A stretch of DNA of 61,201 bases, the filler included. It is 4 parts of 4 records of this genome, joined end to end, with 100 filler letters (N's around TTAATTAATTAA, not from the genome) between each part and the next. Parts side by side here need not be neighbours in the genome. Positions count along the whole stretch, not along the records: positions 1 to 21,255 come from DRR378314_1371; 3 more parts are not named here. One strand, 5' to 3'. Numbering within the stretch: the first letter of the stretch is position 1; each line of letters starts with the position of its first letter. The position numbers and the translations under genes were made by a program. The notes below the pieces were generated by a model. It was given only the letters and a program-made list of their open reading frames with translations, was not told the DNA's origin and ran no database searches. Positions 2,119 to 23,110 of the stretch are shown in pieces.

Positions 2119-3111
2119 ATGAAAGAGACCTTAAATAAACTGATCAATCACGAAATTCTTCCCAAGGAAGAAGCTAAGCAAGTTTTGGTAAACATTGCCA
2201 ATGGAGAATACAATACCTCACAAATAGCTGCTTTTTTAACCGTTTACATGATGCGCAGCGTGACCCTTGAAGAACTGGAAGGATTCAGGGACGCCCTTTT
2301 GGAACTTTGCTTGGCCGTTGACCTTGCCGAATACGACCCGATTGACCTTTGCGGAACGGGCGGAGACGGTAAAGATACCTTTAACATTTCCACCTTGGCC
2401 TCCTTTGTTACGGCAGGAGCGGGAATCCACGTGACCAAACACGGAAACTATGGAGTTTCTTCCAAATGTGGGAGTAGTAATGTGATGGAGTTTTTGGGCA
2501 TCAAATTCAGTAATGATGCAGATTTTCTAAAGAAAACTATCGAGGAAGCCGGTATTTGTGTGCTGCACGCACCTTTGTTTCACCCTGCGATGAAAAATGT
2601 GGCCCCCATTAGAAGGGAATTGGCGGTAAAAACATTTTTCAATATGTTGGGGCCTATGGTGAATCCAGCGTTTCCGAAGAACCAAATGGTGGGGGTTTTT
2701 AATTTGGAATTGGCCAGAATGTATGGATACCTCTATCAAAACACAGATAAAAAATTCACCATCTTAAATGCGTTGGATGGGTATGACGAAATCTCTTTGA
2801 CAGGGGACACCAAAACCATTTCCAACAACACCGAAGCCATATTAAGACCTACTGATTTTGGTGTGGAAAAAGTTTCACAGCAAGAAATCGTTGGTGGTGA
2901 AGACGTAGCAGCATCAGCCCGGATATTCATGAATATTTTACAAGGAAAAGGGACCGAGGCCCAAAACAACGTGGTCTGTGCCAATGCTGGGGTCGCTATT
3001 GCCACGGTGCAAAGCATCACGCCCAAGGAGGGATTTGAAAAAGCTAAAGAATCATTACTCAGTGGTAAAGGGCTGGCATCACTCAAAAAATTGCAATCTT
3101 TATCCAACTAA
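2119..3111 (+). CDS. trpD: Anthranilate phosphoribosyltransferase
   Basis: DLCGTGGDG, FNIST, KHGN, GYDE motifs. Confidence 0.96.
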   Translation: MKETLNKLINHEILPKEEAKQVLVNIANGEYNTSQIAAFLTVYMMRSVTLEELEGFRDALLELCLAVDLAEYDPIDLCGTGGDGKDTFNISTLASFVTAGAGIHVTKHGNYGVSSKCGSSNVMEFLGIKFSNDADFLKKTIEEAGICVLHAPLFHPAMKNVAPIRRELAVKTFFNMLGPMVNPAFPKNQMVGVFNLELARMYGYLYQNTDKKFTILNALDGYDEISLTGDTKTISNNTEAILRPTDFGVEKVSQQEIVGGEDVAASARIFMNILQGKGTEAQNNVVCANAGVAIATVQSITPKEGFEKAKESLLSGKGLASLKKLQSLSN

Positions 3112-3144
3112 AGTCAGGAGTCGGGAGACTGAAGTCCGAAGTTT
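3112..3144 (+). repeat. Heptamer tandem array, left arm of a stem flanking the four-helix-bundle gene
   Basis: AGTCAGG AGTCGGG AGACTGA AGTCCGA AGTTT starting directly after the trpD stop. Confidence 0.85.
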
Positions 3145-3176
3145 AATGAGACTAGAAAAAATCAACAGTGATGATA

Positions 3177-3533
3177 ATGTCAAAATTCAAGTTTGAAAAG
3201 ATAATTGTCTGGCAAAGGGCCATGGATTTTGGAGAAGCCATAAATAACATAACGAAACACTTCCCAAAAAACGAGGCCTACAATCTCAGCTCACAAATAA
3301 GACGAGCCGTGGATTCAATAGCATTAAACATTTCAGAAGGCTCTACCGGACAGACAAATCCTGAATTTAAAAAATTCATTGGTTATGCAATTAGGTCTTT
3401 AAGCGAAGTTGTTACCTGCTTACACAAAGCGAATAGAAGAAATTATATTCCAAGCGAAACATTTGATGAGCTTTATAATGAAGCTTTCAATTTAATGAAC
3501 ATGCTGGTCGCTTTTAGAAAAAACATCAAATAA
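3177..3533 (+). CDS. Four helix bundle protein (23S rRNA IVP / TIGR02436-like, Avd-related fold)
   Basis: FEKIIVWQRAM, FPKNEAYNLSSQIRRAVDSIALNISEG, F..FI.YAIRSL.EV signature; ~118 aa (alternative starts 3168/3171). Confidence 0.9.
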   Translation: MSKFKFEKIIVWQRAMDFGEAINNITKHFPKNEAYNLSSQIRRAVDSIALNISEGSTGQTNPEFKKFIGYAIRSLSEVVTCLHKANRRNYIPSETFDELYNEAFNLMNMLVAFRKNIK

Positions 3534-3541
3534 TTATAAAA

Positions 3542-3576
3542 AAACTCCCGACTTCGGACTACCGACTTCGGGCTTT
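3542..3576 (+). repeat. Heptamer tandem array, right arm (inverted relative to 3112-3144)
   Basis: AAACT CCCGACT TCGGACT ACCGACT TCGGGCT; reverse complement AGCCCGA AGTCGGT AGTCCGA AGTCGGG AGTTT. Confidence 0.85.
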
Positions 3577-3586
3577 CAAATTAAAT

Positions 3587-4372
3587 ATGAACATACTAGA
3601 CAAAATAGTAGCCGATAAACGTAAAGAAGTCGATTTAAAAAAATCGCTTATCACCCTGCCCCAATTGGAAGCCTCGGTGATGATGGAGCGCACCTCCGTT
3701 TCTTTGGCAGAGGTATTGCGAAAAAGCAATTCGGGCATCATCGCGGAGCACAAACGCCGTTCGCCATCCAAGTCGGTTATCAACCAAAGTTTAAGCGTGC
3801 AGGATGTGGCCAAAGGCTATACCGATGCAGGTGCCTGTGGCATGTCCGTCCTTACCGATGGTAAATATTTTGGAGGCTCTTTGGACGATTTGGTGCTCGC
3901 AAGGGCTTCCACCAATATTCCCCTTTTACGAAAGGAGTTCATCATAGATGAATATCAAATCGTGGAGGCCAAAGCCTATGGTGCCGATGTCATATTGTTG
4001 ATTGCTGCCATTCTGACCAGGGAAGAAATCAAAACCTTATCTGAATTGGCGAAAGGACTTGGATTGGATGTATTGTTGGAAGTGCACAACGAGGAGGAAC
4101 TGGAAAAATCCCTAATGCCCAGCTTGGATATGTTGGGGGTGAACAATCGTAATCTTAAATCTTTTGAGGTTGATTTGGAAATCAGCAAGTCGCTATCCAA
4201 AAAAATACCCGATGATTTTGTGAAGGTATCCGAAAGCGGCATTAGTTCCGTGGAAGCTATTCGCGATTTAAAGGAATTTGACTATCAGGGATTTTTGATC
4301 GGGGAAAATTTTATGAAGACGGACGAACCCGGTAAAAGTGCAAAAGAGTTTATTAACAAGATAATCGCATAA
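3587..4372 (+). CDS. trpC: Indole-3-glycerol phosphate synthase
   Basis: IIAEHKRRSPSK, SVLTD, LRKEFI, GVNNRNL, VSESGI. Confidence 0.96.
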   Translation: MNILDKIVADKRKEVDLKKSLITLPQLEASVMMERTSVSLAEVLRKSNSGIIAEHKRRSPSKSVINQSLSVQDVAKGYTDAGACGMSVLTDGKYFGGSLDDLVLARASTNIPLLRKEFIIDEYQIVEAKAYGADVILLIAAILTREEIKTLSELAKGLGLDVLLEVHNEEELEKSLMPSLDMLGVNNRNLKSFEVDLEISKSLSKKIPDDFVKVSESGISSVEAIRDLKEFDYQGFLIGENFMKTDEPGKSAKEFINKIIA

Positions 4373-4477: not shown

Positions 4478-5179
4478 ATGAAGCTAAAGATCTGCGGCAT
4501 GAACCATAACCCAACCGAGGTTGCTGAATTGCAACCGGATTATCTAGGGTTTATTTTTTGGGAGCCTTCTTCCAGATATTTTTCGGGAGATATGCCCAAA
4601 TTGTCCAGTTCTATCAAAAAAGTGGGTGTTTTTGTGGATGCACCTTTGGAAGAAGTTTTGGAAAAAGTCGAGCAATATCAATTAAACGCGGTTCAACTCC
4701 ACGGAAAGGAAAGTGCTGAGTATTGCAAAGCATTAAAAGAAGGCTTTCTGTCATTTCGAGCGCAGTCGAGAAATCAGGGAAATTTTCACCAAAAAGAGGT
4801 CTCGACTGCGCTCGACCTGACAACGCTAGAAATCATCAAAGTATTCTCCATCAAAGATGATTTTGATTTTGATGTCCTGAAAGATTATGAAGAAGTCTGT
4901 GATTATTTTCTTTTTGACACGAAAGGAAAATTGCCAGGTGGCAACGGCTATACTTTTGATTGGGATGTTTTGAAAAAGTATCCATCCAACAAGCCCTACT
5001 TTTTAAGTGGCGGCATTGGATTGGACTCCGAAGAGAAATTAAAAGAATTTTTAAACAGTCCCGCTTCCAAAAACTGTTTTGCCATAGATGTGAACAGTAA
5101 ATTTGAAACAGCACCTGGATTAAAAAATATTGAAGACTTAAAAATATTCATCGAATCGCTAGAGAGCGGTCACAACTAA
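4478..5179 (+). CDS. trpF: Phosphoribosylanthranilate isomerase with a ~25-aa repeat-derived in-frame insertion
   Basis: KICGM, GFIF, VGVFVD, QLHG, LFDT, GGNG..FDW, LSGGI, DVNS.FE; insert at 4749-4822. Confidence 0.93.
   Translation: MKLKICGMNHNPTEVAELQPDYLGFIFWEPSSRYFSGDMPKLSSSIKKVGVFVDAPLEEVLEKVEQYQLNAVQLHGKESAEYCKALKEGFLSFRAQSRNQGNFHQKEVSTALDLTTLEIIKVFSIKDDFDFDVLKDYEEVCDYFLFDTKGKLPGGNGYTFDWDVLKKYPSNKPYFLSGGIGLDSEEKLKEFLNSPASKNCFAIDVNSKFETAPGLKNIEDLKIFIESLESGHN
4749..4822. repeat. TGTCA...TGACA palindromic element inside the trpF coding sequence
   Basis: TGTCATTTCGAGCGCAGTCGAGA (4749-4771) and TCTCGACTGCGCTCGACCTGACA (4800-4822), 21/23 inverted match. Confidence 0.92.
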
Positions 5180-21255: not shown

Positions 21256-21355
21256 NNNNNNNNNNNNNNNNNNNNNNNNNNNNNNNNNNNNNNNNNNNNT
21301 TAATTAATTAANNNNNNNNNNNNNNNNNNNNNNNNNNNNNNNNNNNNNNNNNNNN
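21256..21355. other. Artificial contig spacer
   Basis: N-run + TTAATTAATTAA (stops in all six frames) + N-run, 100 nt. Confidence 0.99.
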
Positions 21356-23110
21356 CACCAGATCCGCGCCCTGCACACGGGCCTCAAGCGTGCCCCAGAT
21401 CATCACGCCCGGATGCGGTGCATCACGGTCGCGCACTTCTTCGGCAGAAAGCAGCGCCCCGACCAGATCGTTGTAATCCGCGGCTGACATTTCGCCACCA
21501 TGTTCCGCGTGTTCCGCCAAGGCATCAACGGTTTCGCGGGCCTTGCGACCTGCCTTTTTCTGCCAAAGCTCGTGTTTGTCCTCACCGGGCTGACCGGCTG
21601 CGATCCTCTCTGCCAAGGCAAGATGCGCAGCAACCCAATCAGACAGCGATTGTTCGGAGCTAATTGGGTGACCACAAAATGTTTCGCCAACCCATGCGAG
21701 CCACGCCATAAATGCGGCATGGCTTTCGCGGTTTTCGATCTTGCCTGCGGCCAGGGTTCCGACCCGTATCAGCCCCTCAGCATCAGGATAAGGCAGCCCT
21801 TCACGCCGGATGCGCATTTCCAGAAGTTGCGTGTTCAACTGATGTTGGTTGCGCCCTTCGCCACTGTGGGTCAGCGGGTGTTTCAGCAAAACCAACAGCG
21901 CCTCTGCATCCAGTTTGCGCAGGAAAAGCGCGGAAACATGGCGCAGAAACCGGCCCGGTGGGGAAAGGTGCAGCGGCGTGCCGGCGCTGTCATCCGGCAG
22001 GATATTCCAGCGGTCCAATGCGGCGGTGACCTGTCTTGTCAGCATCCGATCCGGTGTGATCAGGGCCGCCTTTTGCCCATCCTCAACGGCTTTGCGCAGA
22101 CGCATCGCAATGCTAAGCGCCTCCTCACGTGGCGTGGCGGCCTCGACCAGCGTGATGTTTTGCGTGGCCAGATCAATATCCTTTAGATCCGGGCCCTCGC
22201 TTAACCATGTATCTGTCACCGGTGCTGGCCGCAGCGACAGCGAGATCAGCGCATTACGCGCGGCAGACGGCGGCGGCGTGGGGGCCCAGCTTTCAATCGG
22301 CGGGTCGATGTTCAGCTGCTGCATCAGATCATGAAAACGGTATTGCGGGTGATCTTCTGGTGGGGTCTTGCCGCTAAGTACCGGCCATTGCGAAAGGGGC
22401 ATTGCAAAATCGTACCCTGGCAGGATCAACGCCCCTTGTGGCAATCTGGCGACCGCCTGCATCAGCAGGGAGGTTGTACCGCGCGACCCTGTTGATCCTG
22501 CAACAATAACGGCGTTTTGCGGCTGGTGCTCCTGCCAATGGGCAACAATCATCTGGGTCAATTTGCGCTGGCGGGCCTGGGCGTCAGGCGCTGCGTCCAT
22601 CCCGTCCAGATATTTCGTGGCGATGCCCAGAAACTGCTGGGCGCGTTCCCAATGGCCGGATTGATCCGTAACATCCAGTTTTGCGATATCGTCCGGGCTT
22701 ACCCCTTCGCCCTGCATTTCATCGATCAAGGAGGCAAGGCTGTCAGACAGGGCATAAAGCGAGGCGCGCGGCGCAATGGTCGGATCGGTTGCAATCAACT
22801 GCGAAACCAGTTGGATTAACTCCAGTCGTCGGCGCAAAGCAGGCGTTGCGGGCGGCAGGGTCAGGCCGGGGACCAGTGTCTCAAGGTCGCCAAGCAGCCG
22901 GATATTGGGCAGGAAACCGGCAGGCCCTGCATCAAAAATCTCGCGCAGACGCCGCGCCATGCGTCGGGTGTTCACAATCAGATCAACCCGTGCAATGGCT
23001 TCTGGCGGCTGGCCTGCCAACTTGTGACGCAACCCGTCGATCAAGGCTTGTGGAAAATTGACACCGGGGCTGACGCCGAAAATGCGGGGCTTTTCGGAGG
23101 GCTCAAACAT
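21356..23110 (-). CDS. addB: Double-strand break repair protein AddB, 3'-truncated by contig end
   Basis: MFEPSEKPRIF, AGSTGS, EDHPQY, ALITPDR.L.R.V, DDSAG.PL, IWGTLEARVQ; follows murU as in Alphaproteobacteria. Confidence 0.92.

Follow-up and report, generated by a model that had tools for sequence, protein, structure and literature searches.

The window analyzed here is a stretch of 61,201 nt composed of four parts of four records, and the trp operon that is the subject of this study lies in the first of them (DRR378314_1371, positions 1 to 21,255). The genes of the operon are arranged in the order trpE, trpG, trpD, a small open reading frame (ORF), trpC, trpF, trpB, and trpA. The small ORF encodes a four-helix-bundle protein and is enclosed by two inverted arrays of heptamers (the arms), with which it forms a 467-nt insert that takes up the entire trpD-trpC spacer in the orientation of the operon (Table 1). 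An earlier description made from the letters alone, hereafter the sequence-only reading, had reported the units AGTCAGG, AGTCGGG, AGACTGA, AGTCCGA, and AGTTT directly 3' of the trpD stop codon and AAACT, CCCGACT, TCGGACT, ACCGACT, and TCGGGCT 5' of the trpC start codon, and both arrays were found exactly as claimed. The trpD stop codon TAA (3109-3111) shares bases with the start of the 5' arm, while 10 nt separate the end of the 3' arm from the trpC ATG (3587). In a repeat search, the arms were 35 nt each and 77% Watson-Crick complementary, with 397 nt between them.

Table 1. Host genes and parts of the trpD-trpC cassette, with positions in the window
Feature	Positions	Strand	Basis
trpD, anthranilate phosphoribosyltransferase, upstream host gene	2119..3111	+	PF00591 (E 9.4 × 10−67), PF02885 (E 4.1 × 10−16)
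5' arm, five degenerate AGTCNGN heptamers, sense strand G-rich/C-poor	3110..3144	+	sequence reading, repeat search, duplex energy
A-rich leader from 5' arm to start codon, GC 31%	3145..3170	+	sequence reading
four-helix-bundle protein gene, PF05635/TIGR02436, stop TAA 3531-3533	3171..3533	+	profile matches
3' arm, inverted array, sense strand C-rich/G-poor, internal 14-nt period	3542..3576	+	repeat search, folds
trpC, indole-3-glycerol-phosphate synthase, downstream host gene	3587..4372	+	PF00218 (E 2.1 × 10−80)

The only ORF between the arms matched PF05635 with an E-value of 3.8 × 10−34 and 117.5 bits (cut-off 33.8) and TIGR02436 with an E-value of 8.9 × 10−34 and 116 bits (cut-off 24). Its GC content is 34.4% compared with 43.6% for trpD and trpC, in agreement with the earlier description of an AT-rich four-helix-bundle gene as the sole gene of the loop. 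An alignment of 10 orthologues indicates that ATG 3171, common to most of them, is more likely to be the start codon than 3177, with GTG 3168 as an alternative. Relatives in PDB, identified by sequence match only, are 2GSC (E-value 4.4 × 10−14) and 2RLD (E-value 1.9 × 10−6), for each of which five chains are deposited, and a weak match (E-value 2 × 10−4) was obtained to the PHROG entry 'Avd protein of DGR' (diversity-generating retroelement). By analogy with its relative Avd, we lean towards a nucleic-acid-binding role for the protein. The median dN/dS of the gene was 0.059 (44 pairs from 10 sequences, with the decayed allele of locus L206 omitted), that of trpC 0.052 and that of trpD 0.027; the ratios are rough, as dS was approximately 1.4–1.8 and thus near saturation. 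Purifying selection on the protein is thereby shown to match that on TrpC in strength.

No transposase was found in the ORF list at the cassette, and the 15-nt outer flanks, whose longest shared word is only 3 nt, contain no target duplication; both absences had been stated before. Rfam gave no match in positions 1-21500 at an E-value of at most 1, PADLOC gave no match, and no terminator-like site was found between 3111 and 3587. A scan for sigma-70-type promoters returned 13 sites against 13.6 expected, Bacteroidota promoters being outside the scope of the tool, so that an internal promoter may escape it. In its build, the cassette has the terminal inverted repeats closing a long stem around an ORF and the tandem heptamers of variable number in an arm that characterize the intervening sequences (IVSs) of 23S rRNA, although it is located between trpD and trpC and not in helix 9, 25 or 45 of 23S rRNA. 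Its head-to-tail units, varying in length among relatives, also agree with intergenic heptamer simple sequence repeats (Mrazek-type, similar to short tandemly repeated repetitive sequences). The duplication, shared terminal repeats and near-identical copies of MITEs (miniature inverted-repeat transposable elements) or insertion sequences were not found at the cassette, and its neighbors are trpD and trpC instead of the reverse transcriptase and template and variable repeats that adjoin avd. The analysis shows an apparently promoterless cassette whose type was previously known from those IVSs of 23S rRNA that contain an ORF, and the sequence-only reading was right to describe a gene of this IVS protein family, enclosed by a stem, in the spacer of an operon.

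Members of the PF05635 family were collected from five genomes reached via the trp loci and from 61 Flavobacteriaceae genomes, and 60 further loci were taken. A hidden Markov model built from the first set gave 136 domain hits, 121 of them full-length, and 115 non-redundant members were left after duplicates from overlapping loci and copies near the end of a locus had been removed. The family was present in 47 of the 61 Flavobacteriaceae genomes sampled, with 0–12 copies per genome. The flanks were compared by an ungapped Watson-Crick score between the 90 nt 5' of the start codon and the 90 nt from the stop codon; this score replaced RNAduplex on 105-nt flanks, which was swamped by background (non-cognate median −26 kcal/mol). 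Cognate flanks of the 115 members had a median score of 11, compared with 7 for 1500 non-cognate pairs (Mann-Whitney p = 4 × 10−47), and exceeded the non-cognate 95th percentile in 72 members and the 99th in 32; among the first 26 cassettes, 14 were beyond the 95th percentile. Self-identity at a lag of 7 was 0.43 in the upstream and 0.45 in the downstream flank, compared with 0.28–0.34 at neighboring lags and 0.28 in coding sequence, and it was 0.40–0.41 at lag 14, 0.36–0.37 at lag 21, and about 0.29 at the remaining lags. The best lag was 7 in 71 upstream and 74 downstream flanks and 8 in 24 and 15, respectively, while the sequence of the unit varies between cassettes. Inverted 7-periodic arrays around family members are therefore strongly enriched, and the feature at trpD-trpC is confirmed as a genuine, non-random one that belongs to a recurrent class of cassettes.

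Ninety cassettes with clear arms were used for the analyses of anatomy, mismatches and arm polarity. The median distances were 3 nt from the upstream stop codon to the arm, 18 nt from the arm to the start codon, 11 nt from the stop codon to the second arm, and 10 nt from that arm to the downstream ATG, with 390 nt between the arms. The 5' arm contained more G than C in 72 cassettes and less in 11. The arms comprised 3–5 units in 72 of the 90, with a broad full range of 2–9, which at most weakly favors the earlier suggestion that 4–5 repeats might match an oligomer. Among the 115 members, 105 were co-oriented with long ORFs on both sides, four had an opposite-strand neighbor on one side, and none was antiparallel to both. 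The GC content of the coding sequence was below that of its surroundings in all 115 (31.9% vs. 40.7%), and no two of these cassettes in different contexts were more than 75% identical. As judged by eye from flanking translations, the host neighborhoods include suf, atp, thiolase/acyl-CoA dehydrogenase, ffh-folD, his, and tpiA. In one genome (G004, contig C1, 47–51 kb) three members, each with its own arms, occupy successive gaps of an apparent suf operon (L086, L090, and L099), the neighbors again being named by eye from flanking translations.

The trp contig was placed in Flagellimonas/Muricauda (Flavobacteriaceae), its TrpC having a best match of 97% identity, and all comparisons were made with relatives. 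The window unites DNA of unrelated origin, with a junction near 21300-21360; its GC content is 39–45% up to about 21.3 kb and 53–60% from 22 to 40 kb, after which it changes again. Genome G001 was rejected as kin of the trp contig, since it matches the window (99%) only from 21357 on, has no PF05635 member, and has a TrpD of 36% identity. Over 80 TrpC loci, the trpD-trpC spacer ranges from a TAATG overlap to more than 500 nt. A close relative of the cassette fills it in three loci (L003, L007, and L015), and in an Aquimarina genome (L052) it holds an unrelated family member with 30% identity and different 7-periodic arms, while many other loci have different palindromic elements or bare heptamer arrays there; the trpG-trpD spacers of L040, L041, and L058 also carry family members. 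Filled and other alleles thus occur among relatives. As heptamer arrays are enriched around the family and the gene is not fixed at trpD-trpC, neither of the two computable grounds for rejecting the sequence-only reading, a lack of such enrichment or fixed presence of the gene, applies.

Copies of the trp-site gene were present in 10 of 101 genomes of the genus, 83–100% identical and all 10 at trpD-trpC, while the next relatives were 59–69% identical and located at other sites with other units. The cassette had been proposed to spread into operon spacers; in this lineage such spreading is therefore not current. In a TrpD+TrpC tree of 31 rows, from which L018 was left off due to a partial TrpD, the 11 filled rows fell within one well-supported 22-row clade, mixed with 11 empty rows. 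The pattern requires seven changes, of which supported branches force at least six, and the ranking of trp-site protein identities (100, 93, 92, 90, 85, and 83%) agrees with the tree. Together, the clade pattern and this agreement point to one gain followed by repeated loss or replacement. The data show that the cassette entered once, in an ancestor of one Flagellimonas/Muricauda subclade, was then inherited vertically, and on at least six occasions was lost or had its place taken by another small palindromic element. All 10 orthologues retain recognizable arms, with 4–6 units in the left one. A decayed allele was found at L206 (genome G092), where the gene matches residues 1–108 only and a TAA lies immediately 5' of the trpC ATG; of the two arms, only the left one survives, and it is intact.

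Other small elements were also observed in the trp operon. TrpF gains approximately 25 residues (LSFRAQSRNQGNFHQKEVSTALDLTT) from a palindromic element, TGTCATTTCGAGCGCAGTCGAGA...TCTCGACTGCGCTCGACCTGACA, that lies in frame at about 4745-4812 of trpF (4478-5179); in relatives it is whole, halved or absent, and the same element family fills the trpD-trpC spacers of other species. The trpG-trpD spacer (2018-2108) contains a gene-less element with the ends TGTCATTCCTGCGAAGGCAGGAAT ... GCAGGAATGACA, and similar ends surround a gene for a 109-aa GIY-YIG nuclease (PF01541, E-value 1 × 10−17) in the trpD-trpC spacer of L026 (100-500). The GIY-YIG type is a second class of small genes inside hairpin ends that competes for the gaps of the trp operon. 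Just 5' of trpC, five loci from several genera (L049, L050, L060, L077, and L079) share a conserved motif of about 40 nt with the end ...TTGATTTTTTGGTTCGTTTTG(C/T)ATCAAG(G/A)CAAAATGAACA, possibly a small RNA or a further repeat element. The trpD-trpC junction is also a hot spot for bare tandem heptamers of many kinds, with the units CTGATTA (six copies, L019), CAACTGA (L030 and L037), GAAGTTT (eight copies, L050), ACACTGA (L051 and L056), AAGCAGT (ten copies, L060), and AGAAGTT (L077), and L053 carries an array of 8-mers.

The pairing of the arms was assessed by RNA folding. Both the minimum free energy fold and the centroid fold of 3100-3590 closed the arm stem, with 30 of the 35 positions paired, three of them as G-U; the z-score was −3.25 and none of 100 shuffles was as good. 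The two arms alone gave −35.5 kcal/mol, whereas shuffling the right arm 500 times gave −16.2 ± 3.4 kcal/mol and −27.6 kcal/mol at best (z −5.6), and the mean per-base probability of arm-to-arm pairing was 0.44–0.78 over three sequence contexts. A shifted register of the arms, 75% complementary, was also found by the repeat search. Contigs from four RNA or possible-RNA runs contained trpD and trpC only, partly those of relatives, and are uninformative as they leave 3059-3568 uncovered.

The reading that we favor, with a probability of about one half, is an old, vertically inherited cassette of the rRNA-IVS type, the arm duplex of which acts in the trp mRNA as a processing or insulating structure. 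The four-helix-bundle gene would be transcribed within the trp polycistronic RNA, where the arms would pair into a duplex of some 30 bp that can slip in register, and the base of this duplex would place the trpD stop codon and the trpC start codon about 13 nt apart. On the basis of homology with the rRNA elements, the duplex is the likely working part, serving in RNase III-type processing or as an insulating structure that separates the cassette from the host message. The strongest argument for a life at the transcript level is the orientation bias combined with the homology to the RNase III-cut elements described in the available part of PMC4990558.

A series of observations weighs against placing the function of the arms at the RNA level, as the sequence-only reading had done. 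In contexts of 901 and 1501 nt, the arms pair mainly in a register slid by 14 nt, with 12.9 and 9.0 expected pairs compared with 3.3 and 6.4 in the register proposed first; the in-register stem therefore holds for the fold of 3100-3590, but it is not unique. Mismatches between the arms of the 90 cassettes comprised 77 G·U, 115 A·C, and 323 of transversion type, and the G·U share of 0.40 was not enriched over the 0.457 in non-cognate alignments (p = 0.13). Of the two duplexes, the sense one was the more stable in 43 cassettes and the antisense one in another 43 (Wilcoxon p = 0.75). Permuting the order of the heptamer units in one arm lowered the score from 15.4 to 13.3 (59 cassettes), a modest excess that we read as weak because the tested segment was chosen on the real order, which is thereby favored; for the trp cassette and three orthologues, the real order does not stand out, the fractions of permutations scoring at least as high being 0.11, 0.33, 0.30, and 0.74. 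In close orthologues, changes in the arms are mostly one-sided. Genome G005, without any PF05635 match, still has two AGTCNGN sites (AGTCAGA arrays), and no sign of recent movement of the cassette was found. The ORF of the Coxiella element is reported in the available part of PMC4990558 to be decaying and not expressed. That of the trp site shows strong conservation, and the analogy may therefore break down. The abutment of the arms to the host stop and start codons could simply result from insertion into a minimal spacer, as outgroups have TAATG overlaps.

With G·U pairs, strand stability and position-specific pairing all lacking a sense-strand signature, no mark identifies the sense RNA as the selected strand, and the RNA-level reading of the stem is weakened. 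Rather than a helix that co-evolves position by position, the best description of the arms is that of a single repeat unit copied in inverted orientation. Their complementarity is real and has been maintained for a long time while the unit drifts, carried by the shared inverted unit.

The geometry of the arms also bears on a quite improbable alternative, in which the stem serves translation: about 430 nt would be looped out, the trpD stop codon would come near the trpC start codon, and terminating ribosomes would reinitiate, restoring the coupling that relatives obtain from an overlapping TAATG. The arms do abut the host stop and start codons, at 0 and 10 nt at trp and at medians of 3 and 10 nt in 89–90 cassettes, nine insert-free relatives (L017, L041, L066, L074, L076, L082, L031, L044, and L062) have a TAATG or ATGA-type overlap, and the co-orientation of 105 of the 115 members fits as well. 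However, any insertion into a minimal spacer would trivially produce this geometry, the pairing has no strand-specific signature, and translation of the ORF in the loop would itself open the structure; moreover, other trpD-trpC spacers of 50–300 nt do without such a stem.

The symmetry of the mismatch spectrum and duplex energies with respect to strand would be expected if the cassette were a mobile or recombining element at the DNA level, MITE-like with a passenger gene and without any role in RNA, the arms being terminal inverted repeats for a trans-acting enzyme or being kept alike by hairpin-templated gene conversion. Its patchy presence with at least six losses, the scatter of the family over many operons with 0–12 copies per genome in the 61 genomes, and the status of the trpD-trpC spacer as a hot spot for palindromic elements, including the GIY-YIG element of L026 and gene-less versions in other species, are in line with this, and transposon-remnant and mobile-element hypotheses for rRNA IVSs are listed in the available part of PMC4990558. 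We nevertheless consider it unlikely, and distinctly so. Apart from the missing target duplication and transposase, no pair of more than 75% identity in different contexts was found among the 115 members or in the 101 genus genomes, and family members lack conservation in the sequence of their arms, which leaves an enzyme without a shared end to recognize. Strong purifying selection on the protein is a further point against it, as is the co-orientation of 105 of 115 members, which is unexpected for random DNA insertion, although selection on survivors could produce such a bias.

Arrays of the AGTCNGN unit also occur without the gene, at approximately 10–20 sites each in G002, G003, and G004, for example directly 3' of stop codons or 5' of start codons. 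One lies in the ffh-folD spacer, which in another species contains a family member with different arms. Over the genus, arrays were found in 70 of 101 genomes, with 1220 hits, whereas the reversed pattern used as a control gave 490. Genomes with the trp-site gene had a median of 34.5 hits, compared with 4 in the other genomes (p = 5.5 × 10−5) and with 11 in non-carriers within the clade (p = 0.013). However, in three pairs of sister genomes of which one has the gene and the other lacks it, the counts are equal (5/5, 43/41, and 37/40), and the association of arrays and gene is for this reason largely phylogenetic. At least 20 hits were also present in 9 of the 80 genus genomes without a relative at an E-value of at most 10−25. 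For cassettes in different genomic contexts, the overlap of arm 6-mers increases modestly, from 0.034 to 0.059, as the proteins become more alike (rho 0.13), the pairs in this comparison not being independent. The unit GAAGTCN is common to the trp clade and the 65% identical relative L040, relatives of 68–69% identity have GATGACT, and those of 60–63% have GATGCTN/GGTGCTT. Co-inheritance accounts for the association between unit and protein as well as recognition does. In L226 and L229 (G003 and G004), long intergenic tracts with different heptamer arrays in series were observed, for example (AGTCAGG)5 followed by CAGTGGG/CAGTTGG, then AACAATT/ACCAATA, and then CCCCAAA/CCCTAAA units.

These data are relevant to the possibility that the arrays are binding sites, in duplex DNA or RNA, for the oligomeric protein of the cassette itself, with a unit for each lineage. 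The arms would then serve autoregulation, array maintenance or mobilization, and the RNA stem would be a by-product. The units differ between cassettes, yet within a cassette the two arms have continued to share theirs through long divergence, and the stepwise change of the unit with the protein clade, the growth of 6-mer overlap with identity, the missing sense-strand signature, and the higher array counts in carriers are all consistent with binding. So are the 3–5 units in the arms of 72 of 90 cassettes, the five chains each in 2GSC and 2RLD, and the weak match to Avd. Since gene and arms inherited together would give the same association without binding, and since the equal sister pairs, the array-rich genomes without a relative and the arrays of G005 do not fit, we regard this explanation as unlikely, if well worth keeping in view.

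The abundance of gene-less arrays of diverse units in intergenic DNA, the excess of AGTCNGN hits over the control, and the published over-representation of heptamers in bacteria (available part of PMC4692102) might also suggest that the inverted layout is incidental, the repeats being a generic product of slippage and two of them flanking a small gene by chance. This is very improbable and already disfavored, as cognate flanks exceed non-cognate ones by a wide margin in the survey above and the inverted unit has been kept on both sides across orthologues with near-saturated synonymous sites (dS about 1.4).

If cassettes act in mRNA like their rRNA relatives, as in the processing or insulating role favored here, they would constitute a widespread and unrecognized layer of operon-transcript processing in Bacteroidota, with trp, suf, atp, fatty-acid, and other housekeeping operons as hosts. 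The PF05635/TIGR02436 family, labeled 'function unknown' and with two solved structures, gains a concrete candidate nucleic-acid partner, and the cassettes connect it with heptamer repeats that have been published but not explained. What was not found is important as well, since it indicates that the arms act as inverted unit arrays without a sense-RNA signature. A broader idea, which we think has a small chance of being correct, is that PF05635 proteins and the bacterial excess of heptamers form one system, in which each lineage of the protein, probably as a five-fold ring, would read its own unit and, at the borders of genes, mark or process DNA or the transcripts of operons, the rRNA IVS being only the special case that was seen first.

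Among known systems, the Avd pentamer, an accessory of diversity-generating retroelements, binds reverse transcriptase and nucleic acid. PF05635 resembles Avd, and the structures 4DWL and 2GSC align, according to the available part of PMC10053308. Judged by sequence, the trp-site protein probably shares a related four-helix-bundle fold and family with Avd, but no reverse transcriptase, template repeat or variable repeat adjoins its gene.

Like the trp cassette, MITEs and repetitive extragenic palindromic (REP) elements are small and intergenic with inverted ends, and an integron cassette combines a promoterless ORF, co-oriented with an upstream promoter, with an imperfect inverted repeat. The trp cassette differs from these in having no target-site duplication, transposase, integrase or attC-type site, and in having arms on both sides, heptamer units that differ between copies, and no near-identical copies elsewhere.

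Heptanucleotide repeats occur in Calothrix. In the available part of PMC4692102, over-represented heptamers, mostly in arrays of four units, are described as GGGAATC in Xanthomonas and GGGGA(C/T)T in Nostoc, with 70–75 convergent (inverted) pairs per Xanthomonas genome, and its supplementary table has a 4-unit GGGAATC array overlapping where XCC0516 starts, and XCC0516 is the very PF05635 protein whose structure is PDB entry 2GSC. TAACTGA repeats just 5' of start codons are described for Beggiatoaceae, Cyanobacteria, and five Bacteroidetes in the available part of PMC4679880, and units of this type are also present in the trpD-trpC spacers of L030 and L037. As far as these sources go, the published repeats resemble the arms in being intergenic tandem units with conserved and variable positions near start and stop codons, and differ in being treated as G-quadruplex formers or regulator binding sites. 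In the text available, 'four-helix', 'S23', and 'intervening' have no occurrence in the main text of PMC4692102, nor does 'four helix bundle protein' in PMC4679880. A literature search, with subscription journals mostly outside it, did not find PF05635-family genes with inverted heptamer arms in mRNA operons.

The ORF-bearing 23S rRNA IVSs of Coxiella and Leptospira are similar to the trp cassette in many respects. According to the available part of PMC4990558, the IVS in helix 45 of the Coxiella burnetii 23S rRNA is 428 nt long (467 nt at trp) and has a 28-bp terminal stem that RNase III cuts in the middle in vitro, and its tandem GACAGAT heptamers vary in number between strains. It carries an ORF for S23p, a protein of the same family (PF05635), and the likeness extends to the terminal inverted repeats with a stem of approximately 28–35 bp, the variable heptamers in the arm 5' of the ORF, a GC content below that of the host, and horizontal acquisition followed by vertical maintenance. 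The two differ in that the trp stem is more mismatched (30 of 35 positions paired, G-U included) and its register can slip, and in that the trp ORF has a dN/dS of 0.06 in contrast to the decaying, unexpressed Coxiella ORF. Cleavage by RNase III is demonstrated for the Coxiella element in the same source, whereas for the trp cassette it is a prediction from homology. The host is 23S rRNA in the one case and an operon spacer in mRNA in the other, and relative to the described IVSs, the new element is this same cassette design in an mRNA operon.

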